DNA from: Candidatus Nanoarchaeia archaeon
Lineage (GTDB): Archaea > Nanobdellota > Nanobdellia > Woesearchaeales > WJIZ01
DNA: 64,000 nt
Assembly (NCBI GenBank): GCA_028279765.1
Contig: JANQND010000009.1
Location: 65,198-129,197 of the forward strand
Reading direction: 5' to 3'
In this document: positions 6,850 to 58,226 of the stretch, in pieces
How positions within the stretch are numbered: position 1 is the first letter of the stretch
Layout: each line of letters starts with the position of its first letter
Position numbers and translations under genes: made by a program
Notes under the pieces: model-generated
The model's database searches: none
The model's input: the letters and a program-made list of their open reading frames with translations, nothing else
Told to the model about the DNA's origin: nothing

Positions 6850-7119
6850 ATGAACACAAAAACAATCTTCATCGGAATATCTATTCTTCTTCTACTATTT
6901 ACAGGATGTGCAGGAAAACAGGGACAATCAACTGATACAGGAACTGCTGACCAACAGCCTGGTGCCTCGCAGCAACCAGCTGCAGACGCACAGGTAGATA
7001 AAGAAGAAGTCGTTGCAGAAGTAACCTCTGGAATTGATGATATTGATTCTCTTGATACTGATCTTGATGATTCAGAATTGGATTCCCTTGACGGTGAACT
7101 TGCAGAAATCGACTGGTAA
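6850..7119 (+). CDS. Small lipoprotein with acidic D/S/L repeat tail
   Basis: Signal peptide plus lipobox-like LFTGCAG. C-terminal DSLDTDLDDSELDSLDGE repeats. Confidence 0.35.
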   Translation: MNTKTIFIGISILLLLFTGCAGKQGQSTDTGTADQQPGASQQPAADAQVDKEEVVAEVTSGIDDIDSLDTDLDDSELDSLDGELAEIDW

Positions 7120-7145
7120 TCTCTTTTTTCTTATCCTTTTTTATC

Positions 7146-8129: not shown

Positions 8130-8148
8130 GTGCAGGTAGAATTAATAT

Positions 8149-9528: not shown

Positions 9529-9612
9529 AAAAAAGAAAACCAATTTCTCTCTTTTAAGGCCTTGGACCTATATAAAACAAAAATAAACACCAATGTCCAA
9601 TATAGGACATTT

Positions 9613-10212: not shown

Positions 10213-10247
10213 ACCATGACAGTTTATGGAGGTTATTTAAAGGTTTG

Positions 10248-11087
10248 TTAAAAAGAGAAGTTGCCAGATAGAGTAATACCATACACCGGTTTTGACTCAA
10301 AATCTTCATTGATTCCGATTTGATACTCGCTAAAGAGTTTTAGGTCCAACTCTCCAAGTTTTGTATCTACACTGATTTCTGGGGAGATATGTGAGAGTCC
10401 ACTTGCACCATAAAAGTTTTCCAGGTATGCTCCCTTTGCACCGAGGTTAATGTCAACAGTATGGTTATCTTCTGAGGGAAATGATACGGTTTTATTGATA
10501 GAACCGTGAATCATGATTCCCTCGTCAGCATCACTCCCTGGTGCAATGTAGCTAATGCTGGTATCGACTTCAACCTGTCCGCTGTAATGAATCCCTCCTT
10601 CTAAAATATAATCCATGGAATCTTTTGCGCCGGATTGAGGGAACAACCAAATCTGCGGACCAATTCTTCCACTAAGTGTTCCACCTAACAAATCTTCTGA
10701 GATTTGTTGGGAATAGGTAGCACCAATATCAACTTCGGTTATCTTGTCCATGGGCAAGTTATAGTTCTGCCAAATAAAAGCACTGAGGTTATCCTGTGAA
10801 ACACCTGCATTTATCTGAACTACTTCACCCTCTTGTGGAAAAAAACCCGGTCTGGGGCTATATCTGTTTGCATATGTTGCATTTAGCGAAGCATCCAGAC
10901 TTAAATCTGTCTGGACAGTTTCCTTTTGGGTCTCCTCAATATTTATAGATTCTGTCAGATGATTCAACCCTTCAGGAAGTGCGTAATTTTCCTGATCAAT
11001 CAAATTAGGATCACCTATTCCTAACCCCAAAAAATCACTTGGTGCTGCTCTTGTTTCTAATCGTTCTAATGTTAATGTTGATTTCAT
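10248..11087 (-). CDS. Hypothetical protein (279 aa), second gene of a two-gene operon
   Basis: ORF separated by 1 nt from the upstream ORF on the same strand. It ends in an aromatic GNFSF terminus and has no recognisable domain. Confidence 0.35.
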   Translation of the reverse strand: MKSTLTLERLETRAAPSDFLGLGIGDPNLIDQENYALPEGLNHLTESINIEETQKETVQTDLSLDASLNATYANRYSPRPGFFPQEGEVVQINAGVSQDNLSAFIWQNYNLPMDKITEVDIGATYSQQISEDLLGGTLSGRIGPQIWLFPQSGAKDSMDYILEGGIHYSGQVEVDTSISYIAPGSDADEGIMIHGSINKTVSFPSEDNHTVDINLGAKGAYLENFYGASGLSHISPEISVDTKLGELDLKLFSEYQIGINEDFESKPVYGITLSGNFSF

Positions 11088-33192: not shown

Positions 33193-33888
33193 ATGCTAAA
33201 AAAGGGGGATCGAATCCACAAAAAAGCCCAGGAAATGATAATGGGCAGTATAGTCCTCATCATTTTCCTTATGTTTCTTGTCCCCTTTATCATTGCTCCT
33301 CTTCTTCATGAAGAAGACCAGGAAGATACCCTTGAAGAACTTGCTAAGGAATCTGAAAGAGTAGGAGAGGCTCTTACCAGCCCCCCTTATCCGGAAAATT
33401 GGGATGGCAGCTCAGAGGAGATAGTTCAAGTAGGTCTGCTGCAAAATGGGATCATTGATAGCTCCATCTTAGAAAGCTACAGTGAACTGGATTATTCAAG
33501 AACCAAACTCCTGATGGGCACCAGTGACGAATACTTATTCTTTTTTGAAGATAAAAATGGATTGTTAGAGTTTACAGAAGGAGGAGTACACCGCGAGTAC
33601 TTTGGCTGGAACGGAAATAACAGCAAGAATGGCGGTAGTAATCTCAAAGCAGCAGAGAATTATTTGCTCTCCTCAGCAAATAGTTTGGCAAAGGATGAAC
33701 GCTTCATTGTCATGGAACATAATGGAGAAAAAAAGGAAGTAAAGATGATAACCTATGTGTGGGACTTTGCAGATGGAATGGTTGACCTCAATCAGGTCAT
33801 TTTCTCTATCGATTACTTGTTTTCATCATTTTTACTGACTACCAAGGATAATTATGCAATTGGAGAAGAAGTATACTTAACAGGGTGA
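33193..33888 (+). CDS. Membrane-anchored or secreted hypothetical protein
   Basis: N-terminal TM or signal anchor IVLIIFLMFLVPFIIAPLL. Confidence 0.3.
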   Translation: MLKKGDRIHKKAQEMIMGSIVLIIFLMFLVPFIIAPLLHEEDQEDTLEELAKESERVGEALTSPPYPENWDGSSEEIVQVGLLQNGIIDSSILESYSELDYSRTKLLMGTSDEYLFFFEDKNGLLEFTEGGVHREYFGWNGNNSKNGGSNLKAAENYLLSSANSLAKDERFIVMEHNGEKKEVKMITYVWDFADGMVDLNQVIFSIDYLFSSFLLTTKDNYAIGEEVYLTG

Positions 33889-33892: not shown

Positions 33893-34342
33893 ATGAAAAA
33901 AATACTGGTTATGACTCTTTTGCTTGCCGCTTTCCTAGTGGGGTGCAGTGAGCCTACTAAGGAAATGAAGTCTGATTATGAACTGTCCGAATTTATTGCG
34001 GTTTTGGAATCCTATCCTGACTATGCTGACTACAAAGCAGATTTTTTGAAGGCAACAGGTAAGGATTTTGACCCTGTTATTGCAAGAAAAGGCTCATTGA
34101 CACAAGAATACCAGCAGTCAAGGATAGATCAATTAGAGAGTATTAATTTTCACCCCCAGGCGAATGTCTACCGCGAAGTTCCCATCGGCGATGGCATCTG
34201 GGACATAGAACTCAAGGACTCCGAAGTCTCCAATCGCGGGATTTGGGTGATCTTTGATATGAACAACAAGCAAGTCCTCAAGTTTTTTGGACTTCTTCAC
34301 GCTCAGCAAAAGGGTACCTTTGACCCTCTCGCTCAGAACTAA
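33893..34342 (+). CDS. Lipoprotein (149 aa)
   Basis: Signal peptide plus lipobox FLVGCSEP. Confidence 0.35.
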   Translation: MKKILVMTLLLAAFLVGCSEPTKEMKSDYELSEFIAVLESYPDYADYKADFLKATGKDFDPVIARKGSLTQEYQQSRIDQLESINFHPQANVYREVPIGDGIWDIELKDSEVSNRGIWVIFDMNNKQVLKFFGLLHAQQKGTFDPLAQN

Positions 34343-34375
34343 AGAAAACAACAACAACAAATACTCAACTATGAG

Positions 34376-34870
34376 GTGGAAAACAAAATGAAAAAACTAT
34401 TGGTGTTAATTCCTGCACTGGCGTTATTAGTCACGATCGCCTATGCAGACTACACAACGTTCGTGACACTGGAAGTAACTGAAATGGATTGTATAGCATG
34501 CACTGGTGATTTAACCGGGATTGTGGGAAAGGATGATTCCATTGCGACAAAAATTTCAACTAATGGTGAATGCAACCAGAACATACAAGGATCTTTTTCT
34601 CCAAAAGCAAACACCATCGCAGAAGGAGTTATTTTTACAACTAATGCAGTTACCTTAACCGAAGGATCCCCATACTTTTTTTGCCTGGAGTTGGAAGAAA
34701 GAAGTATTCCCTCTAACAAATACGACCTAAATACTTGTACTGATTTACATGGTGGAGGTCCTGCCTTTACTCTTGGTGGTACAGCTCAATGTAATAGCAT
34801 TGGCTTTGGCTATATCGGAAGCGATAGCAATACTGATACCATAAAACTAGCCTTCCCATTCCAAGCATAA
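34376..34870 (+). CDS. Secreted hypothetical protein (164 aa)
   Basis: N-terminal signal peptide LLVLIPALALLVTIAYA. Confidence 0.35.
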   Translation: MENKMKKLLVLIPALALLVTIAYADYTTFVTLEVTEMDCIACTGDLTGIVGKDDSIATKISTNGECNQNIQGSFSPKANTIAEGVIFTTNAVTLTEGSPYFFCLELEERSIPSNKYDLNTCTDLHGGGPAFTLGGTAQCNSIGFGYIGSDSNTDTIKLAFPFQA

Positions 34871-34874
34871 AAGA

Positions 34875-37800
34875 ATGCATGGGACTCCCTTGAAGGGATG
34901 GCGTAAACGAGCTTCCATCGCTAGGGCTGCCGTACTCTGCTTAGCGCTAGCTTTGATCACGAGCGCGCAAGCATTTTCTACGCTACCAGGAGTAATTTCT
35001 GATGCGGCTTCCAATGGAATTCATGTGTACAGTCGAATAGGAATACCCATTCAAGGATTAGAAGTAGGGTCTTCTAGCAACGGATTATTCGGGAGAGGAT
35101 TTGTCGTCAGTAATAATCAGGGCGAAGGTGTCGGAGCATCTTCGAGCGGCATACTCGTTAGGGCAAAGGTAAAAACCATAAATGCACTGAAACCGATATC
35201 AGCCGCATCCTCGAATGGGATTTCAGTCAGGGGTTCTATTCAAGTAATTTCGAATTCTGAACCCGGAACAGGTGCAAGCGCAAATGGAATTCTGGTCAGA
35301 GGAACTCTTTTGACCATGGATAAGAAAATGCCAAAGAGTGGCGCACTATCGAATGGAATCTATGCAGTGGGATCCATTGCAAATACAGCAACCCTCTCTC
35401 CAAGAACTGCCTCTTCGTCTAATGGAATTAATGTAGTAGGTAGGTTTAACTTAGGTATTAATGATCCGCCAATTGTATCCGCCTCAAGTAACGGAATTAA
35501 TACCCGGGCAAAAACCTATCTTCGTGATGCATTGATGCCTATTACTGGAGCAGGATCTAACGGATTATCAGTAATAGCTGATATCGGAACTCATGGAGGA
35601 TCTTCGACCACCAACGGTATAAAGGTTTTAGGAGTAGTAAGAAAAACCGCTGATCCTGCGGAATTTGATGGAGACACAGGTGCTGCATCTAATGGTCTCT
35701 TTGTCCTCGGAACACTAGACAAGGGAAACATCCAGCAATCGGGAGCATCCTCCAACGGAATCCATGTGCAGGGATTAATCAACACTGATTCGACAGGAGA
35801 GGAGGGAACGGTCATCGGTATTGAAGTATCAAGTGGTGCAACGAGCAATGGTATTAGCGTAAACGGCACTCTGAGTACTGGCAGCATGATAAATCCACTA
35901 ACTGGCGCCTCCTCAAATGGGTTATTCGTGCAGGGAATTATCAGAGCAGTTGACGAGTTATATCCAGCGACTGCTGCAAGCTCAAACGGAATAGCGGCTA
36001 GTGGAACAATGATTGATTTATCCAACTCAGACGATTCCGGAGCATCAACAAACGGAATCGTTATATCTGGAACGCTCGTAACCGATCAACCTTCGCTCTG
36101 CGAAGAATTTGGCTTGCATGTACTCTTCGGTGAAGTCTCATGCTTCTGTGGTGATGGTCGATTAGATGATGATGAGCAATGCGATGACGGCAACGATAAC
36201 AATAATGATGCCTGTACGAACACTTGTCAGTTGGCAACATGCGGTGACGGATATCTTCAAGGATCCGAGCAATGTGATTTCGGATCAAATAATAACGATG
36301 CAGGAGCCTGTACTACGTCCTGTGAATGGGGACCTCAGTGCAGCGTAAATGAATTCTATAAGCTCATTCCTGAACATACGCTGGCAACGGACATAGAAAT
36401 GAGAGAATGCGGATACATACTCGCTGCAGAAAATTCCATTGACCCCATGTTTTCAGAATTTGATCATAAAGGAGAATTCATCCAGTCAAAAATAATTGAA
36501 ACCGCCGGGAATTCCAATTGGTATCATCCCCTGCAAAAAAGCATTAAAACATCTGATGGCGGCTATTTAGTGCTGGGTATTTCACATTATTATCAAATAT
36601 TTATAGCAAAACTGGATCAAAATTACGTGTTGCAGTGGGAACAATCCATCGATACCTCCGACGATCAAATTACCTTGGTGGATGTCATTGAAGATCATGA
36701 GGGGAATTTTGTTGCATCGGGAACAAATAATAACTATAATGATTTCCTGCTCTATAAGTTCTCATCTGACGGATCCTTGATATGGAGAAAAACTCTCTCT
36801 GCTCTTGGTGGAGGAGATGGAATTGGTTACTCCATTGAGCAGGATGAAGACCACAATTATGTTGTAGTCGGAGTAAAACAGCATGATATAGCCATAGATG
36901 CCCACGGAATCTATGTAGGGAAATTTGACATGAATGGGAACCAGATCATCAGCAAATATCTCTATGATGATCCATTAAAACGATATGTAGCACGAGATTT
37001 CATCATCAACGAAGACTCTTCTATCACCATCGCAGGCTACGTAAGAGAAAATAGTATATCAAACCCAACAGACTCTCTTCTTATCACGAAGTTCGATACG
37101 AACTATGATCCGGTGTGGTCAAGGACCATTGAAACTCAGCAAGGATTCAAGAACTTTTTTGCAACCTCTATTACTCATGCACATCAGGGAGGGTATGTAG
37201 TAGTCGGAGGATTAAGCGGAGCAGATGATGTACTGCCTTATCATCACTTTGATAGTCTGCAAAATGGCCAGAAGCTTATCACCGCAGTCTTTGATGAAAG
37301 CGGAAACCTACAGCACTCGTACACTACCTTAAACGAATTCACCGTAGCAAATGATATTGAGCAGCACCCTATGGGAGGGTATGCAATTGCAGGCCAGGCA
37401 CAAACTGGTGCTTTATTGGTAAGGACAAACAATCTGGGCAATGTGACCTTCTGCAACGATTGGGTTGATCTCTCTCTTTCATCAAATTCCATTACTCTTT
37501 CAAGCATAAATCCCATTGCCTCTCAGGACGATACTCTCAGCTTAATAATAACCGTAGATGGAACTCCTATTACTGATCATAGCATCACCAGCGATACTTT
37601 CATTTGCTACATCGAACCCAACATCTGCGGTAATGGGTTCCATGAACCTACAAACGGGGAGCAATGCGATGATGGAAACAATATTGACGATGATAGCTGC
37701 TCAAATACCTGCGTGGCACAATGCGTTCTCTCATCAGCACAATGGATCTATGCGGATAATTCTATGGTAACCAGCCCGGTTCAGGGATGGGAAGCAGGCA

Positions 37801-39308
37801 GAGATAACACCCTAAGCCAAACCGTCTACATGGAGGCAATAGGAAATCATTGCGCAGGTGAAGACATTAATTACACGATTTACGAGGATGATGTATTCTT
37901 TGATGACTTCGTTGATAGCCTCTTAGCAGTGTACAATACCTATCCTGTTTGGCAGCCTCCTTGGTATAACGATGCATTATTTCCTCTCATCTTTACAGAA
38001 AATCCACAGTATTACTTCGTTGCAGAAGATCCTCTTGGGAACCAATTGCAATCCCAAACTCTTGAAATTACTCGGCCACCAGAACTGGTTGGATCACTTT
38101 GCGGGAATGGTATCCTCGACTTTGGAGAAGAATGCGATGAGGCAGGACTAAATACCGATACTGCATGTACTCCAGATATTGGAGAGCAGTGCCACTACTG
38201 TAACACCACCTGCTATAACATCACGCTTGGGACTATTGAATGCCATCTCTTTGATGTAGAAATCTCTCTAAACCCAGCCAACGACAACAATTTCAACGGT
38301 CTTGCTGATGAAGGAGATATCATCACCATTAATGCAACAATTAACCCGAATTGTCAGGATGCAGACCGAATCCTTGTGGAAGCATCCTCGATAGACAATT
38401 CCTGCACAATAATACCGGGAGCATCAGCAATCATTGATGCCATGAACGAAACCATTACTATTACTCAGGGAGATTCCTCAGCCATAACAGAATGGACAGT
38501 GCCGTCCATACCTGCAGAATGCCAGGGAAAAACAGTGAATGCGCAAAGCGCGGCGCTCTATAGCGACACCAGTCAGGCACCGGTAGGGTCAACACTCAGC
38601 ACCCCGTCCGGTTCATTCACCTTTGCAGGCGCTGTTTGCGGCAATGGCCTTCCGAATTCAGGTGAACAATGCGATGACGCAAATTCGAACAATAGTGATT
38701 CCTGCATCATTGACCCTCTGAACGGATATGAATGCAAGGATGCGTTTTGTGGTGATAACTATACCCGTTCAGGATTCGAACAATGTGATGATGGAAACGC
38801 CATTGATACAGATTCCTGTACCAGCTCCTGCCAGATTGCATTCTGTGGTGATTCAATTATTCAAAGTGGAGTAGAAGAGTGTGACGACGGAAATATTCAA
38901 AGCGGTGATCGCTGCTCAAGCACTTGCCAGTATGAGGCGAGCTTTATCTGGAATGAGAAGAATGAACAAAGAGAAGCGGTGCTGATATTAGGATTAGAAA
39001 AGGATATTAGTGGTGACTGGCAGGATTATCTCATCGTCTTTAACAGCTCAAGCGACATCTCCTCTCTGATTACCTTTGAGGATAAAACCACCATTGCAGA
39101 CGATGCACCGGTGGATCTCAGCCAATTTGAATCCTATGAGAGCAGTTATCATTTACTGAGCTATTACTGGAACCATACGGGATGGACTCCGCAGCCCGGA
39201 GATGAGGGAACCTACCGGGCATTCCTGGAACTGCGCGACAACATTAACGAAGTCATCGAAATTCAGGGCAGTGATAGAATCTATTCAAACAGTTTCACCG
39301 TCTCATAA
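34875..39308 (+). CDS. Giant secreted surface protein (1477 aa). Domains: N-terminal 'ASSNGI' tandem repeats, Myxococcus-type cysteine-rich repeats, and a beta-propeller-like middle
   Basis: Signal peptide. About 18 periodic repeats with x[AS]SSNGI.V.G spacing of about 20-25 aa (DNA about 35010-36075). At least 7 C-G[DN]G......E[QE]CDDGN......C...C units, as in the Myxococcus cysteine-rich repeat. Recurrent G.Y.VVG strands. Confidence 0.6.
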   Translation: MHGTPLKGWRKRASIARAAVLCLALALITSAQAFSTLPGVISDAASNGIHVYSRIGIPIQGLEVGSSSNGLFGRGFVVSNNQGEGVGASSSGILVRAKVKTINALKPISAASSNGISVRGSIQVISNSEPGTGASANGILVRGTLLTMDKKMPKSGALSNGIYAVGSIANTATLSPRTASSSNGINVVGRFNLGINDPPIVSASSNGINTRAKTYLRDALMPITGAGSNGLSVIADIGTHGGSSTTNGIKVLGVVRKTADPAEFDGDTGAASNGLFVLGTLDKGNIQQSGASSNGIHVQGLINTDSTGEEGTVIGIEVSSGATSNGISVNGTLSTGSMINPLTGASSNGLFVQGIIRAVDELYPATAASSNGIAASGTMIDLSNSDDSGASTNGIVISGTLVTDQPSLCEEFGLHVLFGEVSCFCGDGRLDDDEQCDDGNDNNNDACTNTCQLATCGDGYLQGSEQCDFGSNNNDAGACTTSCEWGPQCSVNEFYKLIPEHTLATDIEMRECGYILAAENSIDPMFSEFDHKGEFIQSKIIETAGNSNWYHPLQKSIKTSDGGYLVLGISHYYQIFIAKLDQNYVLQWEQSIDTSDDQITLVDVIEDHEGNFVASGTNNNYNDFLLYKFSSDGSLIWRKTLSALGGGDGIGYSIEQDEDHNYVVVGVKQHDIAIDAHGIYVGKFDMNGNQIISKYLYDDPLKRYVARDFIINEDSSITIAGYVRENSISNPTDSLLITKFDTNYDPVWSRTIETQQGFKNFFATSITHAHQGGYVVVGGLSGADDVLPYHHFDSLQNGQKLITAVFDESGNLQHSYTTLNEFTVANDIEQHPMGGYAIAGQAQTGALLVRTNNLGNVTFCNDWVDLSLSSNSITLSSINPIASQDDTLSLIITVDGTPITDHSITSDTFICYIEPNICGNGFHEPTNGEQCDDGNNIDDDSCSNTCVAQCVLSSAQWIYADNSMVTSPVQGWEAGRDNTLSQTVYMEAIGNHCAGEDINYTIYEDDVFFDDFVDSLLAVYNTYPVWQPPWYNDALFPLIFTENPQYYFVAEDPLGNQLQSQTLEITRPPELVGSLCGNGILDFGEECDEAGLNTDTACTPDIGEQCHYCNTTCYNITLGTIECHLFDVEISLNPANDNNFNGLADEGDIITINATINPNCQDADRILVEASSIDNSCTIIPGASAIIDAMNETITITQGDSSAITEWTVPSIPAECQGKTVNAQSAALYSDTSQAPVGSTLSTPSGSFTFAGAVCGNGLPNSGEQCDDANSNNSDSCIIDPLNGYECKDAFCGDNYTRSGFEQCDDGNAIDTDSCTSSCQIAFCGDSIIQSGVEECDDGNIQSGDRCSSTCQYEASFIWNEKNEQREAVLILGLEKDISGDWQDYLIVFNSSSDISSLITFEDKTTIADDAPVDLSQFESYESSYHLLSYYWNHTGWTPQPGDEGTYRAFLELRDNINEVIEIQGSDRIYSNSFTVS

Positions 39309-39310
39309 TC

Positions 39311-39937
39311 TTATTTTCTGAATAAGTGAATAAACCCTGAGAAACATCGAAGAATAAGCTCTCCGCAGACTATCAAGATAAAGTAATAGGCCGCATTTTT
39401 CCATAGTGAAAGAAACTGCTCTATGATAATCCCTACATCGAAAAGAGTAATGAGCTTCACATCAATAATAAAGATGCCCAGAAGAGCAAAAGGAATCATC
39501 TTTGCAATATCTTTAGACAAATCTTCATTATAATAGGCACAAATTCTCGTAGTTGCAATCAAAGCCATGGAGGCAAGCAAAATCTGATCAAAAGACCGTG
39601 TTGAAATTAACGAAATCAGCACCACAATCACTAAAAACCAGAAAAAAACAAACAGAGGAAAGATAATCAAATACTCCAGAACATAAAAAATAGCAGCAAA
39701 AAAACCATAAAAGAAAGGATGTTTCGACTCATTATACTTATTCAGGTCCAGTTTAAAAATATCCCGACGCGCAAGAGCCCGATAGAACTTAAAGATAAAT
39801 ACTGAATACACGATCATCCCGGCAACCAGTATCAATAGGGGCTCTAAAGTAGACGTAGCCTCAGCAAGCGAAAATTCCGTGCCACTGACATTGATGGACG
39901 CCATGAAAGCCTTTACAAGTTTAGTGTATTTAAGCAT
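39311..39937 (-). CDS. Polytopic membrane protein (hypothetical)
   Basis: Several hydrophobic helices. Confidence 0.35.
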   Translation of the reverse strand: MLKYTKLVKAFMASINVSGTEFSLAEATSTLEPLLILVAGMIVYSVFIFKFYRALARRDIFKLDLNKYNESKHPFFYGFFAAIFYVLEYLIIFPLFVFFWFLVIVVLISLISTRSFDQILLASMALIATTRICAYYNEDLSKDIAKMIPFALLGIFIIDVKLITLFDVGIIIEQFLSLWKNAAYYFILIVCGELILRCFSGFIHLFRK

Positions 39938-39998
39938 ATCGAATTGCTAGTTCTATGATTTCTCCGAATAATTTATATTCTACTGTTCATTCTTTGTT

Positions 39999-40562
39999 GT
40001 GATGAGCCAAGAAATAGCAGCTGAGCATACAAGACATCAGGGGCTAATCCACTCTTCTGCCTATTCAGAGAAATTGCTATATTTGGTGGGAAATTCTAGT
40101 TTAGCCCAATCTGAGTTAGCAGATGGCATATTTCCTAATGTTTTTGGAGCAATAACTTACGTAATAGGGCAAAACGAAAAAATCAAATCCTTATGGACGG
40201 AAAAAGGAAAACCGCTAGATGAATATACCGATGCATTAGGTGATTTTGTTTGTATCCCCAACGACGATTTACCTGGTTACGTTGGCGAAGAGCCGATGAA
40301 CGTCTTGCTACAGGGTCTGTCACAAACCGCACTAGCTCCAGACAGAATTATTGCATTCTATTGGGAGAATAATAGAACAGAGGCAAATGGCTTTAGACTA
40401 AGGCATTCCGGTTTATATTTGGGGAAACAGTCAGGAGAGGATATATTTTTTCATCAAGATGGAATTGGTGGTAGATATGCTATTTCCAGCATTGATGATT
40501 ATAAATCTGACTTATTGCCAAGCTCCACAGAAACTCTCGAGTTAAAAGTATTTGCTCCTTAA
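39999..40562 (+). CDS. Hypothetical protein (187 aa)
   Basis: ORF only. Confidence 0.3.
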   Translation: MMSQEIAAEHTRHQGLIHSSAYSEKLLYLVGNSSLAQSELADGIFPNVFGAITYVIGQNEKIKSLWTEKGKPLDEYTDALGDFVCIPNDDLPGYVGEEPMNVLLQGLSQTALAPDRIIAFYWENNRTEANGFRLRHSGLYLGKQSGEDIFFHQDGIGGRYAISSIDDYKSDLLPSSTETLELKVFAP

Positions 40563-40569
40563 TTATAAT

Positions 40570-41928
40570 TCACATCCCAAAGCCTTTGGGCATCTTACCT
40601 TTCATCTTCTTCATCATTTTGTTCATATCGGTTGAGCCTTTCATCATCTTCATCATTTTCTTGCTCTGCCGATACTGTTTAATCAATTCACGCACTTCCC
40701 GCGCATTCAGCCCCGATCCCCGGCAAACCCGGTCAATGCGATCGGAATCAATCATCTCAGGCTCTTCAAGCTCCTCTTGTGTCATGCTTTGCATCGCGAT
40801 CTTCCATTTCTCTAATTTGCCCTCCTGCGTCTGCAGAACCTCTTTAGGCATTTTTAATTGTCCGAACCCGGGAATCATCTCTGCAACTTTAGTAAGGGGT
40901 CCCATCTTTTTCATTGCAGCCATTTGCTCATACAAGTCCAGTAAGCTAAAATCGCCTTTCAAAAAGCGCTTGCCCAGATCCTCTGCATCTTCTTCAGAAA
41001 TAGCCTCTTTTGCTTTCTCCAAAAGGGTCTCTAAATCACCCATTCCAAGCAACCTGCCAACAAAATTCTTCGGTTTAAACTCTTCCAGGTCATCACTTTT
41101 TTCCCCTACACCGATAAACTTAATTGGCGCCTGAGTCGTTGCACATGCAGACAACGCTCCTCCTGCTTTAGCGGTTCCATCCATTTTGGTCGCAATAACT
41201 CCGGTGATATGGCAACTCTCATGGAACTGCTCTGCCTGTTTTTGGGCAGTTTGCCCAATATCTGCAGAAATAACAAGCAATCGCTCTTCAGGTTTAGCAA
41301 GAGAATTAAGGGATTCGATCTCTTCAATAAGGTCCTCACTCAAAGCGTCCCTTCCCGCCGTATCCATGATAACAATATCAAACTGCTCAAGCTCCTTCTC
41401 GAAGTGCTTATAAATAGCATTCACATCTTTCTCATCGCGCTTTACAAACACCGGAACATTCACCTGTGCTCCAATTTGTTCAATTTGATCAATAGCAGCA
41501 GGTCGATGTACATCCAGTCCTATTAAACAGACCTTATGCCCGCGCTTGATAAAAAATTTAGCAAGTTTGCCTGAAGTAGTGGTTTTACCTGAGCCAAACA
41601 AGCCTACCAGCATGATCTTGAAGGGTTTCTGAGAAATCTCGATCTTGTGGCCCTCACCACCCAGAAATTCGGTTAATTCTTCATAGACGATATTGATCAG
41701 GTACTCTCTTTTGGTTAGCCCAGCAGGAGCATCTTCCTTTAGTGCCCGCTCCTTGATCTTCTTCGTAAACTCGAAAACCAGCTTCACATTCACATCTGCC
41801 TGGATCAGAGCCCGCTGAATATCTTTAATGAGCTCATTAATCAGTTTCTCATCAACAAATACCGCTTTGGCTATCTTATTGAGGGTGTTTTTCAGTGAAC
41901 TGCCCAGTTTTTCTAAAACCATAAGCAT
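40570..41928 (-). CDS. srp54: Signal recognition particle protein SRP54
   Basis: N domain, G domain GLFGSGKTTTSGKLA / DTAGR, Met-rich M domain (MMKMMKG). Confidence 0.85.
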   Translation of the reverse strand: MLMVLEKLGSSLKNTLNKIAKAVFVDEKLINELIKDIQRALIQADVNVKLVFEFTKKIKERALKEDAPAGLTKREYLINIVYEELTEFLGGEGHKIEISQKPFKIMLVGLFGSGKTTTSGKLAKFFIKRGHKVCLIGLDVHRPAAIDQIEQIGAQVNVPVFVKRDEKDVNAIYKHFEKELEQFDIVIMDTAGRDALSEDLIEEIESLNSLAKPEERLLVISADIGQTAQKQAEQFHESCHITGVIATKMDGTAKAGGALSACATTQAPIKFIGVGEKSDDLEEFKPKNFVGRLLGMGDLETLLEKAKEAISEEDAEDLGKRFLKGDFSLLDLYEQMAAMKKMGPLTKVAEMIPGFGQLKMPKEVLQTQEGKLEKWKIAMQSMTQEELEEPEMIDSDRIDRVCRGSGLNAREVRELIKQYRQSKKMMKMMKGSTDMNKMMKKMKGKMPKGFGM

Positions 41929-42084: not shown

Positions 42085-43428
42085 GTGTACTTAATGAACA
42101 AAAAACTATTGCTAATCAGCCTATGTATAACCGTATTTCTCATTTCTGCATGCGAACAGCAAGCGGCGACAAATGACGTTGCGTTTGTTCCTATTGATCA
42201 AATCCAGGTGGAAGAAGATCAGCAGACAGAATATATTTCTACAGAGCAGGATGCAGGCCAAATGGATTCTGAAAAAGAAGAGGGAATGAAAGAAGATTCC
42301 ATGGAAGGCCATATGATGGACGATGCAGGCATGGAAAAGGAAGATGCCATGCAGGATTCCGGAACCGAAATCATTGTTGAAGACGGTATAATCATTGAAG
42401 ACACCCCCTTAGAAGGCGGGCAGGAAGATATTACCAATGACGGAATTGTTATAGAAGATACTCAGATTGCGCAGGCTGTCGAGAGCGGCGATACCGAAAC
42501 GATTGATCTCACCACTATTCCTGTGGAAGAGGACGCAGCTGAGGATGACCATGACCATTCAGCCGATCATGTGCATGATGAAGAGGATCATATGGACGAT
42601 ACAACCATCGCAGTCGTTGAAGAAACAGAGCCAGCACCACGGGAAATCGTCCTCATTGTGCAGGAAACTGACTTGGTAAACGTTCAGCCTGTCGCTAATG
42701 ATCCTGACCAGGACAAGCTGGAATTCACCTACAGTAGTCCTTTGAACAGCCAGGGAAAATGGCAAACGACCTATGGTGACCAGGGTGAGTATACTATCAC
42801 TATTACTGCATCCGACAGTGAATTAACAACTTCGCGTGATGCTCTGCTCATCGTAAACAAGAAAGAAGAGCTTCCGGTGATCTCCATCCTTGCTCCGGTA
42901 GGAGAGATGGCACAGGAGATCAACGAGAACTCCGACCTGCAGTTCACTATTAAAGCATCTGACCTAAATAAGGATCCGCTCACTTATATGTGGAAACTTG
43001 ATGGGGAAGTGGTCTCTGTTGACGAAAACTACAAATACGAAGCAGATTATAATAGCGCAGGATCACATACGATAAAAGTGGATGTATCAGACGGCACCTC
43101 TACGGTCTCTGAACTATGGGCAATTACGGTCAACAATGTTGACCGCCCGCCAGTGCTCAAGGTGATCCCTGATGTCACAGTAAAAGAGACGGAAACAGTA
43201 GTGATCACCCCTGCAGCAACCGATCCTGATGGGGATGAAATCACCTACACTATCTCTGATCCGGTTGGTGATTCAGGAATCTGGGAGACGACCTATGATA
43301 GCGCAGGAGTGTATACGGTGACTGTTGCAGCATCTGATGGTGAACTGGACGATAGCCAGCAGGTCAAAGTAACGGTTATTAATGTGAACCGTGCTCCGAT
43401 CATCGAAGATATTATCCAGGTGCAATAA
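42085..43428 (+). CDS. Secreted protein: acidic repetitive N-terminal region plus about four cadherin-like/Ig-like beta-sandwich repeats
   Basis: Signal peptide plus lipobox-like LISAC. Repeats with DPD[QG]D.L.[FY]TY......G.W.TTYD..G.YT..V.ASDG, ending in VN[NK]VDRPP / VNRAPI. Confidence 0.5.
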   Translation: MYLMNKKLLLISLCITVFLISACEQQAATNDVAFVPIDQIQVEEDQQTEYISTEQDAGQMDSEKEEGMKEDSMEGHMMDDAGMEKEDAMQDSGTEIIVEDGIIIEDTPLEGGQEDITNDGIVIEDTQIAQAVESGDTETIDLTTIPVEEDAAEDDHDHSADHVHDEEDHMDDTTIAVVEETEPAPREIVLIVQETDLVNVQPVANDPDQDKLEFTYSSPLNSQGKWQTTYGDQGEYTITITASDSELTTSRDALLIVNKKEELPVISILAPVGEMAQEINENSDLQFTIKASDLNKDPLTYMWKLDGEVVSVDENYKYEADYNSAGSHTIKVDVSDGTSTVSELWAITVNNVDRPPVLKVIPDVTVKETETVVITPAATDPDGDEITYTISDPVGDSGIWETTYDSAGVYTVTVAASDGELDDSQQVKVTVINVNRAPIIEDIIQVQ

Positions 43429-43458: not shown

Positions 43459-45393
43459 ATGAAAAGATACATGCTTTTCATTTTTTTTTCTTTATTATTC
43501 TCTGTTATTGCTAGCTCTGCAACCATCCTGGAGTTTGAGGAAACTGACTATATCAATCTGCGGCCAAAAGCAGTTGATCAGGATAATGATTCCCTGAGCT
43601 ATTATTTTGACCGCCCGCTGACCACTGAGGGAACCTGGCAGACAACCTACGGGGATGAAGGCGTATACAACACTAAGGTATCAGTAACTGACGGCAGGCT
43701 GGTGACTCAAAAGAACATTACCCTTATCGTAAATAAGAAAGAGGAGTCACCGCAGATCAGCATTCTGGCCCCGCAGGGAGAACACATCTACATAGAAGAG
43801 TCAAAATCAATCTTTTTTAATATTCAGGCATCAGACCTTAATAAAGACGATTTGAGCACCGAATGGTTCCTTGACGGTGAAAAAGTATCAGAAGGAAATT
43901 ATTTCACCTATGCCTCTGATTTCTATAGCCAGGGAAACCACACTATTGCAGTTGAAGTACATGACGGAGTAAATACCGTTGCTCAGAGCTGGGAAGTAGA
44001 GGTGCAGGATGTTGACCGCACTCTTTTGCTTGACGAATTCAAAAGCATGACGGTTAACGAAACCGATATTGTTGTACTCAGCCTGCCTGACTTTGCAGCA
44101 TTTGACCTGTTCTATAATATCAGTTCTCCATTTGAGAGCGAAAACAAATGGGAAACAACCTATGATGACGCAGGAGTATACACTATTGCGGTAACTATCT
44201 GGGATAACAGGGAATTCAAGGCAGTAAAAACCTTCAAGATACTGGTAGAAAATGTTGACCGGCCTGCAAATCCTTTATCGGAGAATACCTATTGGATATC
44301 TGAAAACGAGCAGCTCATTATTTCTCTCAATTATACAGACCCTGATGGTGATGCAGTAAAAACTGAAGTGGGCGGCCTGCCACGCGGAGCGAAAATAGAG
44401 AGGGACGAGCTCATATGGACACCCTCTTATGAATACGTAACTAAAGAAAATTTCATTGATGATATTGCCAAGAATTTTCATGCCATGAGCAGAACACTCT
44501 CTGTTCAGGTAAACGCTACCTCCAGTAATCTGCGGTTAACCCAGCCACTTCATATCCGGGTATTTGACTCTAATCTACCTCCGGTATTAGAGCCAATTAA
44601 TGATATAACAGTTACGGAAGGGGAGGCTGTGTACTTCAATCTCTCTTCCTTTGATCCGGATAATGACACCATCTCCTATTCCTTTGACGGTATTATCAAT
44701 AAAGACGGCTATCAAACAGCACAGGGAGATGCAGGAACATACTATGTTACTGTCTGGGCAAATGATGGGTTTCTGAAAACCCAAAAACGTGCAAAAATAA
44801 CCGTTCTTGCTGCCAACTCTCCTCCTGTTATAGATGCTATTGAGGACCACCAGGTAAACGAAGGAGAAGTGCTTGAAATTTCACTGCGCGTGCAGGATAC
44901 AGAGAACGATAAGATTTCCTATTCCACAAATCCTGTTCTTGACGGGTCCTATTTCCAGGGAAGCACATTTATCTGGAAGCCAAGCCATGAGGTGGCATCA
45001 CAGGATAATCCGAAAATCATTGATCTGGAATTCTTCGCAAAAGACGATGCAGGGTCAACATCCCAGAAAACATCAATAACCGTGAATGACGTAAAGCGCC
45101 CTTTCTCACTTACTCTCTCGAGCCAGATTGATGGTGAAACCTTTTACGTAGGAGACGAAATTCCTCTTTTTGTAGAGGTATTTAACCCTGACAATCTTGA
45201 GCTTACTTACCGATGGAAAATTTCCTTGTTTAATTCCATAGAAGCAAACAATTCGTTGATCGTAGTCTACGACAAACCGGGAAAAAAGAAAGTCTCGGTG
45301 CTAGTCTCTGATGGGGAGCAAACACTCGATAGAGAGTGGGAATTCAGGCTTGAAAAGCGGCCTGAAGTAGAACTGGCAGGCCTCAATACATAG
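43459..45393 (+). CDS. Secreted protein with about six cadherin-like/Ig-like beta-sandwich repeats, paralogous to the preceding gene
   Basis: Signal peptide. The same DxDxD / TTYGDEGVY / VDRP repeat grammar. Confidence 0.5.
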   Translation: MKRYMLFIFFSLLFSVIASSATILEFEETDYINLRPKAVDQDNDSLSYYFDRPLTTEGTWQTTYGDEGVYNTKVSVTDGRLVTQKNITLIVNKKEESPQISILAPQGEHIYIEESKSIFFNIQASDLNKDDLSTEWFLDGEKVSEGNYFTYASDFYSQGNHTIAVEVHDGVNTVAQSWEVEVQDVDRTLLLDEFKSMTVNETDIVVLSLPDFAAFDLFYNISSPFESENKWETTYDDAGVYTIAVTIWDNREFKAVKTFKILVENVDRPANPLSENTYWISENEQLIISLNYTDPDGDAVKTEVGGLPRGAKIERDELIWTPSYEYVTKENFIDDIAKNFHAMSRTLSVQVNATSSNLRLTQPLHIRVFDSNLPPVLEPINDITVTEGEAVYFNLSSFDPDNDTISYSFDGIINKDGYQTAQGDAGTYYVTVWANDGFLKTQKRAKITVLAANSPPVIDAIEDHQVNEGEVLEISLRVQDTENDKISYSTNPVLDGSYFQGSTFIWKPSHEVASQDNPKIIDLEFFAKDDAGSTSQKTSITVNDVKRPFSLTLSSQIDGETFYVGDEIPLFVEVFNPDNLELTYRWKISLFNSIEANNSLIVVYDKPGKKKVSVLVSDGEQTLDREWEFRLEKRPEVELAGLNT

Positions 45394-45409: not shown

Positions 45410-46981
45410 TTGTTATCTGCATGTATGAAAATACCGCAGCAGTATTCTGACCCTACTTTAAATCTTGCGCTGGATACTCTTGCCTCTAAGAAGCAGGCAA
45501 TCGTTTTTGTCAATACGAAAAACTCTGCAGAAAAGACTGCAGAAGAAATCGCAAAAAAAGTTAAAGAAAAAACTCATGTCGTCCTTGCAGAAAAAGCCCT
45601 GCATTCTCTCTCAAGCCCCACAAAACAATGCCAGCGTTTAGCAAAGTGCCTGGAAAAAGGAATTGCTTTTCATCATGCAGGATTAACTTCTCAGCAAAAA
45701 GAGCTTATAGAGGATAGTTTTCGAAACAAGGAGATCAAAGTCATTGCCGCAACACCCACGCTTGCAGCAGGGTTAGATCTCCCAGCGTATCGTGTTATAC
45801 TAAAAGATCTGCGTAGATTCGGAAGGAGGGGCCTGCAGTATATCCCGGTTCTCGAATACCTGCAAATGGCGGGACGAGCAGGGCGGCCAAAGTATGATAC
45901 GAAAGGGCAGGCAATCACCGTAAGCTCTTCAGAAGATCAAAAAGAAGAATTAACGAACAGGTATCTTCACGGAGAGCCGGAATCTATCTATTCGAAACTT
46001 GCTGTTGAGCCGGTACTCAGGACCTATGTATTATCTTTGATCGCATCAAAATTTGCAACTTCTAAGAAGTCTCTTTTCGACTTTTTTTCCCAGACCTTCT
46101 GGGCGCACCAGTTTGGTGATACCCAGAAGTTATTTGGAATTATCGAAAAAACTCTCCAGTTATTAGAGGAGTGGGAGTTCATAATCGGATCAGATACCTC
46201 TGAGCAGCATGCAGAGTTCACTTCTGCATCAGACTTGCTCAAGGAGGATACCAAGTATAAAGCAACGATATTGGGTAGCAGAGTAGCACAGCTCTATATT
46301 GACCCTTACACTGCACATTATTTTGTAGAAGCGCTGCAGAGGGGAGCGCAGCGATCCATTGCTCCCTTTTCTATTCTTCACATTGTCTCCTCTACTTTGG
46401 AAATCAGGCCGCAGCTGAAGGCAAAGACAAAAGAATTTGAAAAAATCCAGGAGGCTCTGCTCACCTATGGAGATGATCTTCTGGACAAGGAGCCCTCTAT
46501 CTATGATGAAGACTACGAGCAGTTTCAGAACGCCATCAAAACTGCACTGTTCTTTCAGGACTGGATTGATGAAAAAGGCGAAGAATTCTTATTGGAGGAA
46601 TACGCTATCAGGCCGGGTGAAATTAAGGCAAAGCTTGACATCGCAGACTGGCTGATCTACTGCATGGATGAGATGGCTCGAATACTCTCTTTTAAGGATT
46701 TGATTGCAGAACTCAAGAAATTACGAGTCCGCCTGCAATATGGAGTCAAAGAAGAGATCATTACTTTGCTTAAGCTCAAGAATATTGGTCGTGTTCGTGC
46801 ACGAAATTTGTATAAGAATGGTATCAAAGATATTGCTGCGGTGAAAGCTGCAGACTTTATGAAACTCTCCCAAATACTCGGAAAGAATATTGCAATCGAC
46901 GTCAAAGAGCAGGTAGGGCAAAAGGTCGAACAGGTAAAGGAAAATAAAAGGAAAGGACAAATTAGTTTGAAGGATTATTGA
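45410..46981 (+). pseudogene. Hel308/Ski2-like helicase lacking the N-terminal RecA1 ATPase domain (C-terminal 523 aa only)
   Basis: Motif IV VFVNTKNSAE, motif V ATPTLAAGLDLPA, motif VI QMAGRAGRP, and WH, ratchet and HhH (LKNIGRVRARNLYKNGIKD) domains are present. No Walker A/B region is present. The ORF begins 17 nt after an unrelated surface-protein gene. Confidence 0.55.
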
Positions 46982-49052: not shown

Positions 49053-49143
49053 GCCCGAGTAGTATAATGGATAGAATACCTGGTTGCGGAATACTATTCA
49101 ATGCAAAATCCAGGAGATCGGAGTTCAATTCTTCGCTCGGGCA
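49053..49143 (+). tRNA. Intron-containing tRNA, anticodon tentatively GCG (Arg)
   Basis: 7-bp acceptor stem GCCCGAG/CTCGGGC, D arm GTAT-AATGGATAGA-ATAC, anticodon stem CCTGG/CCAGG enclosing a 26-nt loop (TTGCGG plus about 19-nt insertion at 37/38), T arm CGGAG-TTCAATT-CTTCG, discriminator A. No encoded CCA. Confidence 0.55.
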
Positions 49144-51276: not shown

Positions 51277-53280
51277 ATGGAATTGAAAAGAATACGAAAA
51301 CGTGACGCAAGAATAGTAGAGTTCGATCAACAAAAAATTACGAGCGCTATATTTAAGGCTGCAAAATCCGTTGGCGGAACAGATGAGAGTATAGCAAAAA
51401 CCCTCTCTGATAAAGTAGTTGCTGTACTCGAATACATGTACGGCGCAAAGGAAATCCCTACCGTTGAAGAAGTCCAGGATGTCGTGGAAAAAATTCTTAT
51501 CAAGTCAGGCCACGCAAGTACCGCAAAAGCATACATCCTCCATCGAAAGCAGCACGAAAAAATGCGCTCCATGAAAGGATCCTTTCTGGAAGTGCGCAAT
51601 GCTGTCGATGAATACCTTAAAAAAACAGACTGGCGTGTCTATGAGAACAGCAATGCAGATTACTCGTTTTCAGGCCTTATGTCACACACCGCAAGCAAAA
51701 TACTGGCAAACTACACGCTCACTGAAATCTATTCAGATGAGATCGCCCGCGCACACAAAAACGCGGACATCCATATCCATGATCTAGGATACGGAGTTAT
51801 TGGCTATTGTTCTGGTTGGTCACTAAAAAGTCTGCTTATGAGCGGATTTGGCGGGGTTTCCAAAAAAATCCGATCAAAACCACCTAAACACCTAGATGTT
51901 GCATGCGTTCAGATGGTAAATTTTCTCGGAACCATGCAGATGGAGCATGCAGGGGCCCAGGCGTTTTCCTCCATAGATACCCTGCTTGCTCCTTTTATTC
52001 GCATAGATAACCTCCCTTACGAACAGGTAAAACAATGCATGCAGATGCTTGTTTTCTCTTTGAATGTGCCAAGCAGATGGGGATGCCAGGCACCCTTTAC
52101 TAACTTCACTTTTGACTGGACAGTACCAAAAGATATGGAGAAAGAGCCAGCAATAATTGGTGGAGAACTCATGGATTTCACTTACGGAGACTGCCAAAAC
52201 GAAATGGACCTGATTAACCAGGCATTTATTGAAGTCATGCTTGAAGGAGATGCAGACGGCAGAACATTCTTCTATCCTATCCCTACCTATAATGTCACGA
52301 AAGACTTCAACTGGGATTCTTATAACGCGAAACTGCTTTTTGAAATGACCGCTAAGTACGGGACCCCTTATTTTCAGAACTTCATTAATAGCTCATTAAC
52401 TCCTTCAGATGTTCGCAGTATGTGTTGTAGATTACAGCTCGATCTCAAGCAACTAAGAAATAAGATGGGAGGATTATTCGGCGCCGGTGACCAAACCGGG
52501 AGTATTGGTGTAGTAACCATCAATCTTCCACGAATCGGATACCTTGCAAAAGATGAAAAGGAATTTTTCCAATATCTAGATCAAGTGATGGAAATAGCAA
52601 GAGATTCCTTGGAAACAAAGCGATCAATCATTGAAAAAAATCTCAAAGCAGGCTTAATGCCCTTCACCAGGAAATTTTTGGGTTCCTATCGCAATCATTT
52701 TTCAACTATCGGACTAAATGGAATGCATGAAGCGCTGCTCAACCTTATCGGTAAGGGAATAGAAACACAAGAGGGAAGAGAACTGGCAGTAAAGGCACTC
52801 CAATTCATGCGCGATAAGCTCACTGAGTATCAGGAAAGCACAGGCAACCTCTACAACCTTGAAGCAGTGCCTTGTGAGTCTGCAACATACCGATTCGCAA
52901 AGCAGGACAAAGAGAATTATCCTGATATTATCTCTGCAGGAACAAAGGAAAAACCCTACTACACGAACTCAACACACTTACCGGTAAACCACACCGACGA
53001 TGTCTTTGATGCCCTGGAACATCAGGATGAGTTACAGACACTCTATACCGGTGGCACAGTCCTGCATTGCTTTTTGGGAGAGAGGCTGGACAATTGGCGC
53101 AGTACGATGAAGCTAGTCAAAACTATTGCCAATAACTTCTCTCTCCCATATTTTACCCTGACACCCACTTTCAGTATTTGCCCCGAGCATGGATACATTA
53201 AAGGAGAACATTTCACTTGTCCCTGTCACATAGAAGAAGAAAAAGTACAAATAAAGGAGGTAGAAACATATGAAATGTGA
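51277..53280 (+). CDS. nrdD: Anaerobic ribonucleoside-triphosphate reductase, large polypeptide (ATP-cone, catalytic barrel, Zn site) without the glycyl-radical segment
   Basis: N-terminal ATP cone (RIRKRDARIVEFDQQKITSAIFKAA), class III RNR body, C-terminal CPEH...CPCH Zn motif. The ORF ends 13 codons before the position where the RxxGY motif would be expected. Confidence 0.8.
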   Translation: MELKRIRKRDARIVEFDQQKITSAIFKAAKSVGGTDESIAKTLSDKVVAVLEYMYGAKEIPTVEEVQDVVEKILIKSGHASTAKAYILHRKQHEKMRSMKGSFLEVRNAVDEYLKKTDWRVYENSNADYSFSGLMSHTASKILANYTLTEIYSDEIARAHKNADIHIHDLGYGVIGYCSGWSLKSLLMSGFGGVSKKIRSKPPKHLDVACVQMVNFLGTMQMEHAGAQAFSSIDTLLAPFIRIDNLPYEQVKQCMQMLVFSLNVPSRWGCQAPFTNFTFDWTVPKDMEKEPAIIGGELMDFTYGDCQNEMDLINQAFIEVMLEGDADGRTFFYPIPTYNVTKDFNWDSYNAKLLFEMTAKYGTPYFQNFINSSLTPSDVRSMCCRLQLDLKQLRNKMGGLFGAGDQTGSIGVVTINLPRIGYLAKDEKEFFQYLDQVMEIARDSLETKRSIIEKNLKAGLMPFTRKFLGSYRNHFSTIGLNGMHEALLNLIGKGIETQEGRELAVKALQFMRDKLTEYQESTGNLYNLEAVPCESATYRFAKQDKENYPDIISAGTKEKPYYTNSTHLPVNHTDDVFDALEHQDELQTLYTGGTVLHCFLGERLDNWRSTMKLVKTIANNFSLPYFTLTPTFSICPEHGYIKGEHFTCPCHIEEEKVQIKEVETYEM

Positions 53281-56933: not shown

Positions 56934-58226
56934 TTACACCCACTTCACTTCTAAAAAATGCGCAGAGCATGAAAAGCAGGGATCATAGGATCGAATAAGC
57001 TTCTCAATATCCATAATAATGTCTTCTTTTTTCTTCTTCAAAACACTGGGAACGAACTCTCGAATATCTTCCTGCATATTGAGCAAGTTCTGTGCTGTAG
57101 GAGTAATAATATTTGCATTCGTGATCGTTCCCAGATCATCAAGCGTGTATTCGTGCCAGAGCGTTCCCCTGGGAACCTCAACAGCTCCAACACCTGTTCC
57201 TGAGCGCGGCTGAATCTTCTGCACCTCTTCAGGAACTATTTTGAGGTTTTTGCAGATCTCGATGGCATGATCCAGGCTGTGCATCATATCAATAGCCTGT
57301 GCAATGACATTATGGTAAGGGTTATAAGAGGGCAGCTTCAACCCGGATTCTTTGAGCATTTTCTTTGCATTCACACTTAATTGCTTATGACTGTTGTTCA
57401 GCCGTGACAATGCACCGACCGTATACCGATGATTCTCGCGTACGACAAAATTAGCGCTTGAATACAGCTCATGATATTCTGAAATAAACTTTCGATATTC
57501 TGACTTCTCAAACGAATTATCCTTGGAAGAAAACTTACCGTCAAGTACAGCATATTCTTTCTCATCAACTAAGGAAAACCACTCTCCTTTACTTTCAAAA
57601 TCAGGGTATTTCAAAGAAGAAAAGAGCTTGCATGCCTCACGTGCGTCCTTGCGAATAGACTCTAATTGAACTCTCATCTCATCAACTTGCTGCTGAGTTG
57701 GCAGTTTCAGCCATCCACCAATCGTTGCAGATACGGGATGAAGATCACGCGCAGCAAGCGTTTTAATAACCGCGTTTCCAACTTTCATTAAATTAAGGGC
57801 ATTTTTCAGCTGCGGCTTGTACTTCGGCGCCATGGCAAGTGCTGATTCATACCCCACATAATCCGGAAGCGCTAAAAAATACAGATGCGTAGCATGGGAT
57901 CGTATCCGCTCTCCTAATGTCATCAGAACACGAAGTGTTTTGGTTTGTTCCGTAGGATTATATCCTAAGGCATTCTCAATCGCACTGATGGCCGCAATAA
58001 CATGCGCACAGCTGCACACACCGCAAATGCGTGATGTCATCTCATGCGCCTCATAGTATTTTCTTCCGCGCACCAATCCTTCAAAATACCGGGAGCCTTC
58101 TACAGCAGAGAGCTTGCAGGTCTTCACTTTTCCTTTGTCAATACCTAGCTCAAGCTTTGCATGCCCCTCGATTTTCGTGATATGATTCAGCGTTATTGTC
58201 TTACCCATAATAGATCTTCTCTCCAT
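56934..58226 (-). CDS. [NiFe]-hydrogenase large (alpha) subunit, group 3 type
   Basis: N-terminal RICGVCSCAH and C-terminal DPCFSCSAH nickel-binding motifs. Confidence 0.85.
   Translation of the reverse strand: MERRSIMGKTITLNHITKIEGHAKLELGIDKGKVKTCKLSAVEGSRYFEGLVRGRKYYEAHEMTSRICGVCSCAHVIAAISAIENALGYNPTEQTKTLRVLMTLGERIRSHATHLYFLALPDYVGYESALAMAPKYKPQLKNALNLMKVGNAVIKTLAARDLHPVSATIGGWLKLPTQQQVDEMRVQLESIRKDAREACKLFSSLKYPDFESKGEWFSLVDEKEYAVLDGKFSSKDNSFEKSEYRKFISEYHELYSSANFVVRENHRYTVGALSRLNNSHKQLSVNAKKMLKESGLKLPSYNPYHNVIAQAIDMMHSLDHAIEICKNLKIVPEEVQKIQPRSGTGVGAVEVPRGTLWHEYTLDDLGTITNANIITPTAQNLLNMQEDIREFVPSVLKKKKEDIIMDIEKLIRSYDPCFSCSAHFLEVKWV

Follow-up and report, generated by a model that had tools for sequence, protein, structure and literature searches.

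The locus examined here raises the question of what an uncultured archaeon does with a giant exported protein whose N-terminal repeats match no described family. The gene lies at 34875..39308 (+) of a 64,000-nucleotide stretch of contig JANQND010000009.1, assigned to a Candidatus Nanoarchaeia archaeon; the whole of this stretch was analyzed and is referred to below as the window, and all positions are window positions. The protein combines a tandem array of a repeat centered on the motif ASSNGI with a beta-propeller, seven cysteine-rich modules, and three domains lacking a family assignment. We give about one chance in two to the reading that it is an exported modular binding protein, in which the propeller and the three further domains form an acidic assembly, stiffened by disulfides, on a near-neutral solenoid rod ~8 nm long. 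How the array folds, the dimensions of the rod, binding as the function, and any connection with a host are inferred, and a role as an adhesin or in host contact would follow from the architecture.

The open reading frame (ORF) is uninterrupted over its 1477 residues and occupies exactly the position given in the first-pass annotation, which had been made from the sequence alone. In the public annotation, this protein (P0001) is 1472 residues long and starts at a TTG at codon 6, and the signal peptide is kept with either start. Residues 1-33 (34875..34973, +) form a predicted Sec-type signal peptide, MHGTPLKGWRKRASIARAAVLCLALALITSAQA, with cleavage placed ahead of Phe. Its n-region has a net charge of +5, its 13-residue hydrophobic core spans residues 18-30, and its c-region ends in AQA/F, with AQA at -3 to -1. 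When hydropathy was averaged over 19 residues on the Kyte-Doolittle scale (KD19), this was the only segment in the entire protein to exceed 1.6, making it the sole hydrophobic segment. By inspection and hydropathy, the large protein is thus predicted to be exported by the Sec pathway, and the signal peptide proposed earlier was upheld.

Following the signal peptide, residues 41-409 (34995..36101, +) comprise the repeat array, which was delimited with a unit table and column compositions. The array consists of 16 units of 18-31 residues, with a mode of 23, and a single 9-residue fragment inside unit 12. Roughly 18 repeats at 35010-36075 had been proposed; the array itself stood and its coordinates were essentially right, but the count is 16-17, depending on whether the fragment is included. 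The unit consensus is xxGASSNGIxVxGxIxxxxxxxP. Gly8 is invariant (16/16), position 9 is Ile or Leu in all 16 units, and Asn7 is present in 15, while Ala4 and Ser6 are each found in 13 of the 16, Gly13 in 12, and V11 in 11. Hydrophobic residues recur at the fixed unit positions 9, 11, and 15, and the unit is closed by Pro, which occupies position 23 in 8 of the 11 units that extend that far. The observed number of motifs in the array was reached by none of 10,000 shuffles, and the periodic DNA pattern gave 3 matches where 0 were expected. When scored against a hidden Markov model (HMM) of the repeat, each of the eight double units gave 47-65 bits. On the opposite strand, an ORF of 144 residues (35591-36025, -) lies entirely within the array; most probably this is not a gene but a shadow ORF arising from the repeats on the coding strand.

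The periodicity of the protein is not matched by similarity in the DNA. Tandem Repeats Finder returned nothing at a score of at least 30 on the array DNA. On average the units are 43-50% identical at the nucleotide level, the best pair reaches 63%, and the longest exact word common to units is 10 nt. Identity is flat between lag 1 and lag 8, independent of the distance between units. A wide range of synonymous codons encodes the conserved Ser, Asn, Gly, and Ile residues, with Ser drawn from both the TCN and AGY sets. This codon diversity, together with the flat identity across unit distances, indicates that selection acts on the protein, and with the low DNA identity it suggests that the array is ancient and has been maintained by protein-level selection. 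Judged by its nucleotide sequence, the array would give neither slippage nor homologous recombination anything to act on. The prediction that it is a hotspot for length variation was therefore not borne out, and a repeat at the protein level is not automatically a hypervariable locus. The only other contig found to carry the region, from the Logan assembly of SRR20820735, is 100% identical to window positions 33900-41766.

Searches for relatives of the repeat were made at several levels. With the array alone, Pfam (E <= 10) and PHROGs (E <= 1) returned only noise, and a search of the whole protein against NCBIfam at E <= 1 gave no match on the array. Against PDB sequences, both the array sequence and the repeat profile found only matches with E > 1. 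A word-indexed search of 5.8 billion clusters with residues 1-409 returned no homologue; this type of search does not list the query's own entry, although that entry is in the collection. We then built a repeat profile from non-overlapping double units and ran it with hmmsearch (HMMER) against all 1.84 billion representative proteins. The profile recovered only the protein itself (435 bits) and a second protein, P0002 (48 bits), in a search where a profile of 45 positions needs ~45 bits for significance and would miss short or strongly diverged arrays. P0002 was rejected as a relative, since it is an Ig-like protein with an 82-residue period and shares only SLSNGL with the repeat. The 90% cluster of the large protein is a singleton, present on one NCBI contig of 132 kb and in one Sequence Read Archive run. 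No paralogue of the array was found when the window was scanned with the repeat HMM, and no close relative was found among metagenome contigs. In GTDB genomes searched at the DNA level with tblastn, the matches were limited to the cysteine-rich modules and none fell on the array. By these searches the ASSNGI repeat is an orphan at the sequence level and belongs to no described sequence family, in keeping with the initial failure to assign it to one.

A structural relationship was sought through the period of the repeat. Metagenome contigs were scanned for N-G-[ILF] motifs repeated four times with exactly 23 codons from one to the next, and at least 120 loci carried this pattern; among the matches listed, none was related to the array by the repeat HMM. 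Some of these loci encode long proteins with classic right-handed beta-helix repeats, recognized by the Pfam Beta_helix and NosD models at E values of 1e-111 to 1e-169. One locus, L054 (TARA_R110002126_G_scaffold279836_1), contains at 2990-10411 (+) an ORF of more than 2474 residues that runs off the end of the locus and holds more than 60 PbH1 units with an almost perfect 23-residue period; by eye only, its N-terminal part is similar to the domain by which exoproteins of two-partner secretion are secreted.

PbH1 repeats (PF13229 Beta_helix, PF05048 NosD; CASH domains) and the ASSNGI units share the 23-residue period, and both occur in large exported proteins. Their first half-units are alike, consisting of small residues followed by [N/D]-G-I-x-[V/L]-x-small, and the closeness can be seen by placing the PbH1 unit VTGAGANGIDVSGS of L054 beside GTGASANGILVRGT of the large protein. 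The array conforms to a period of 22-23 with a strand starting at G-I-x-[VL], in the same register as in the confirmed Beta_helix proteins. Using hhalign, we compared the repeat profile with PbH1 double units taken from Pfam-confirmed Beta_helix/NosD proteins. Motif-selected PbH1 units gave a score of 25.7 (P = 6e-6, probability 85%), an iterated and less biased set gave 19.4 (P = 2.8e-4, probability 41%), and the standard tool gave 18.8 (P = 4.6e-4, probability 33%), with all three alignments in register across 33-36 columns. For controls picked by the same DNA pattern, namely one leucine-rich repeat and two other 23-residue repeats, the scores were 8.5-10; profiles with shuffled columns gave 6.5 +/- 1.5 and reached 11.5 at most. 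On this profile evidence, the likeness of the array to PbH1 is marginal, and its membership in the PbH1 family cannot be demonstrated; a PbH1-like beta-solenoid is nonetheless our best structural guess, at roughly even odds. A beta-roll of the RTX type was considered and rejected, as the units lack the GGxGxD nonapeptide and a conserved Asp, and there is no Pfam match.

The distal part of the protein could be assigned with more confidence. Residues 490-~860, which with a short unassigned tail to residue 917 are encoded by 36342..37625 (+), correspond to a seven-bladed propeller of the delta-60/DUF5122 type, with blade motifs near residues 512, 561, 609, 659, 714, 771, and 833. A propeller-like region had been noted initially, and the homologue and profile searches bore this out. 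The region has 266 homologues at E <= 1e-3 (best E = 3.3e-27), most of them carrying PF17164/DUF5122 and two of them named delta-60 repeat proteins. The family alignment resolves into seven repeats of ~51 residues, and the query has its invariant Gly, Asp, Lys, and Trp positions. A profile of the family that included the query matched beta-propeller chains of CylK in the PDB at 1.5e-39 and designed Bagel propellers at 4.6e-9. The query alone scored 11.3 bits against PF17164, below the cut-off of 27 (E = 0.44), and TIGR02608 gave no match to the large protein at E <= 1. Together, these sequence comparisons confirm the region as a predicted beta-propeller that is a divergent member of the delta-60/DUF5122 type. 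The seven blades of ~51 residues and the pattern D-G-G-Y-x-[IV]-x-G ... K-[LF]-D ... G ... W are common to the delta-60/DUF5122 proteins, the C-terminal propeller of CylK (PDB 7fh6, 7ron), and the large protein, but the latter is only 22-30% identical to its relatives. Most of those relatives are stand-alone bacterial proteins of ~450 residues, some with tails of the type IX secretion system, whereas here the propeller is embedded in an archaeal mosaic of 1477 residues. Nothing in the large protein points to catalysis of the CylK kind.

Seven cysteine-rich modules of the DUF4215, or myxo_disulf_rpt, type begin at residues 425, 456, 918, 1076, 1255, 1292, and 1324. The whole protein scored 106.7 bits against TIGR02232 (cut-off 20.8, 3.6e-31, 6 stretches) and 73.8 bits against PF13948 (cut-off 27, 1.3e-20, 5 stretches), so the at least seven Myxococcus-type modules of the first-pass annotation were recovered as seven, above the curated cut-offs. 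Modules 1-2 (residues 425-455 and 456-489) lie in a cysteine-rich, acidic region at 36102..36341 (+) and were identified by both models and by motif. Module 3 (residues 918-950; 37626..37724, +) was identified by HMM and motif, module 4 (residues 1076-1113; 38100..38213, +) by motif, and modules 5-7 (residues 1255-1352; 38637..38930, +) gave the best HMM stretches. The cysteine pattern C-G-[DN]-x ... E-x-C-D-x-[GA]-N ... C ... C is present, Cys makes up 12-16% of the module regions, and these regions are strongly acidic. By tblastn, the region of modules 1-2 matched 15 loci from other genomes, and modules 5-7 were 50% identical to a locus of a Proteobacteria metagenome-assembled genome (MAG), L001. 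The modules are 40-60% identical to those found in Myxococcota, Proteobacteria, Planctomycetes, and one Pacearchaeota MAG. The Myxococcus-type loci have only the cysteine modules in common with the large protein, no other region of which was found there, and in this archaeal protein the modules are placed as spacers between unrelated domains. According to a study of diatoms, in which a protein of the adhesive trail likewise contains DUF4215, no function is known for this module (bioRxiv 10.1101/2023.03.06.531300).

The Pacearchaeota MAG (PFCY01000081.1, locus L014) encodes at 2073-4607 (+) a protein of 844 residues with an N-terminal hydrophobic segment, in which a single DUF4215 module, CGDDTLDDDEQCDDGNIVNGDGCSSTC, stands directly ahead of a C-terminal transmembrane helix and basic tail. 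This predicted surface protein resembles the large protein in being exported with a DUF4215 module, but it has a transmembrane anchor and lacks both the ASSNGI array and the propeller. Its predicted features indicate that surface proteins of DPANN archaea make use of the "Myxococcus" module.

Between and after the modules lie three domains that we designate dA, dB, and dC. The acidic domain dA (residues 951-1075; 37725..38099, +) and the Ser/Thr-rich domain dB (residues 1114-1254; 38214..38636, +) separate modules 3, 4, and 5, and the C-terminal domain dC (residues 1353-1477; 38931..39308 with the stop codon, +) ends the protein and carries no transmembrane or sorting signal. None of the three had a family match in Pfam or PHROGs, and no homologue was found when they were searched as one concatenated query.

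Taken as a whole, the large protein is a lineage-specific variant of a common type of modular secreted protein. In the reading that we prefer, it would be exported by the Sec pathway as a modular extracellular protein, and the 16 diverged 23-residue units would stack into an elongated beta-solenoid with about one coil per unit. At ~4.8 Å per coil, this would give a rod of ~8 nm, closest in kind to a right-handed beta-helix of the PbH1 type. The near-neutral rod would bear a strongly acidic distal part made up of the seven-bladed delta-60-type propeller and the three unassigned domains, which the seven disulfide-rich DUF4215 modules would space and stiffen. Such a protein may function in binding, as an adhesin or to capture ligands, either at the cell surface or in its surroundings.

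Examination of the neighboring genes lends this reading some support. The large gene is the last in a tight block of co-directional genes separated by 68, 4, 33, and 4 nt, and it begins 4 nt past the upstream stop codon. On the basis of their N-termini, the three co-oriented genes immediately upstream all encode products with N-terminal export or anchor signals, and none of the products has a Pfam match. The first (33193-33888, +) encodes 231 residues with the N-terminus MLKKGDRIHKKAQEMIMGSIVLIIFLMFLVPFIIAPLL, in which K-A/Q leads into a long hydrophobic stretch, that stretch being preceded by K-K-A-Q; this looks like an archaeal class III, or type IV pilin-like, signal. The product of the second (33893-34342, +) has the lipoprotein-like signal LLLAAFLVGC with an L-V-G-C lipobox, and that of the third (34376-34870, +) has a classical signal peptide and six Cys residues. 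By their spacing and N-termini, the three genes and the large gene probably constitute one operon. Two genes encoding PKD proteins lie 3-4 kb downstream of the large gene, the first (42085-43428, +) specifying a protein with the lipoprotein-like signal VFLISAC and PKD/Big_9 domains, and the second (43459-45393, +) a further PKD protein with a signal peptide. With the upstream lipoprotein-like gene and these two proteins, the region is rich in exported proteins. We count this neighborhood, comprising the three upstream and the two downstream genes, in favor of an exported binding protein, as we do the Pacearchaeota surface protein with its DUF4215 module beside a membrane anchor.

Several observations weigh against this reading. 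Retention of the large protein at the cell surface is left unexplained by its sequence, as no C-terminal transmembrane segment was found (the maximum KD19 over the last 100 residues is 0.57), no lipobox was found (Cys22 lies within VLC, which is not a lipobox), and no NCBIfam sorting signal was matched, the PGF-CTERM type being among those considered. As to the solenoid, the second half-units differ, with V17, I19, and N22 (hydrophobic-x-hydrophobic, then Asn) in PbH1 but G13-x-[ILV]15 ... Pro23 and no conserved Asn in the ASSNGI unit. The Pfam Beta_helix and NosD HMMs gave no match on the array even at E <= 10, and a PbH1 HMM that we built scored it at -29.5 bits, below shuffled sequences. 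AlphaFold modeled the array with a mean predicted local distance difference test (pLDDT) score of 44.8 from the single sequence and of 36.2 when supplied with an internal pseudo-alignment of four 4-unit blocks. Foldseek found nothing significant with the single-sequence model, the best nominal matches being the beta-helices 6n2b and 4rt6 at E > 3. Finally, Ser, Gly, Asn, and Thr together make up 45% of the array, so that partial disorder is possible. Both AlphaFold runs, although of low confidence, placed one beta strand of 7-10 residues at unit positions 9-16 and no helix anywhere in the array. The earlier suggestion that the repeats form "a beta-helix or beta-roll stalk" can thus be retained in part, in that a beta-helix is plausible from the marginal profile similarity and the all-beta models, while the beta-roll falls with the missing GGxGxD motif.

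An unlikely alternative is that the protein serves nutrition through polysaccharide binding or processing, and not cell-cell adhesion. The array would then be a carbohydrate-active beta-helix of the CASH type, with the propeller and other domains as accessory carbohydrate-binding modules (CBMs). The Beta_helix/NosD family is dominated by carbohydrate-active proteins, and CASH-type repeats of this family are the sole detectable resemblance of the array. The protein is seemingly secreted without an anchor, and the window encodes sugar metabolism, including a xylose isomerase (8e-194). This alternative is set back by the absence of any glycoside hydrolase, lyase, or CBM family match anywhere in the large protein; the PbH1 likeness is itself only marginal, and catalytic residues cannot be assigned.

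We regard as distinctly improbable that the array is a flexible, largely unstructured spacer rich in Ser, Gly, and Asn, possibly glycosylated, that tethers the folded C-terminal modules. Such a spacer would account for the very low AlphaFold confidence in both runs, for the composition (14.6% Ser, 14.9% Gly, 7.9% Asn, and 7.6% Thr), and for the lack of any structural homologue among PDB sequences or by Foldseek. The strict 23-residue period, the invariant Gly, the near-invariant Asn, and the phase-locked hydrophobic residues, all preserved despite saturated synonymous divergence, are however what one sees in repeats that fold and not in linkers, and a low pLDDT is no surprise where a sequence has no homologues.

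We also considered that the array could be a new, lineage-restricted beta-solenoid, or another repeat fold, that has only converged on the N-G-I turn-strand motif of PbH1, and that in an episymbiotic archaeon it would form the stalk, or the surface of contact, of a protein for attachment to a host. As a combined proposal this is improbable.

Least probable by our estimate, and very unlikely, is a structural component of the cell envelope, such as an S-layer or S-layer-associated protein held non-covalently, possibly by the small upstream exported proteins, and not a specific adhesin: the protein is large, acidic, exported, and without an anchor of its own, in an apparent operon with three small exported or anchored proteins, but it has no S-layer family match, its mosaic build would better fit an accessory surface protein, and it is a singleton without orthologues, while for main envelope proteins relatives in sister lineages are the rule.

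The remainder of the window provides the wider setting of the large gene. It encodes a CCA-adding enzyme of the archaeal type, which scores above the curated cut-off, together with a family-B polymerase, a Hel308-type helicase, and a tRNA-Phe of 91 nt, and this gene content is that of DNA of archaeal origin. The tRNA-Phe (GAA) gene at 49053-49143 (+) is ~15-20 nt above the standard length, and the extra length suggests an intron; tRNA introns are common in archaea. The helicase ORF at 45410-46981 (+) encodes 523 residues from a TTG start and matches Hel308-type models only from about model position 223 on, and the N-terminal ~220 residues appear to be missing or encoded elsewhere. Genes for the xylose isomerase (617-1969), an anaerobic ribonucleotide reductase (51277-53280), and the large subunit of a sulfhydrogenase-type [NiFe] hydrogenase (56934-58226) point to an anaerobic, sugar-fermenting lifestyle. 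The NrdD product of 51277-53280 (+) has 667 residues in the Logan assembly, identical to the window, and 665 on the NCBI contig, both falling in one shared 90% cluster, so the two assemblies of the population differ slightly at this point.

The sugar-fermenting gene content deserves to be weighed against the minimal DPANN episymbiont that had been assumed for this organism. The practical value of the case is modest, as it concerns a single protein of a single population and gives no handle on function. Large exported proteins with repeats that databases do not recognize are numerous in uncultured archaea, and they are the natural candidates where hosts, surfaces, or polymers are to be contacted. 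The present case supplies a well-defined array of 16 units under protein-level selection, fused to two recognizable extracellular modules. Should the array prove to be a PbH1 beta-helix that has diverged, it would widen the range of sequences known for that fold, and a new family model could be started from it; otherwise, it would represent a new repeat fold.

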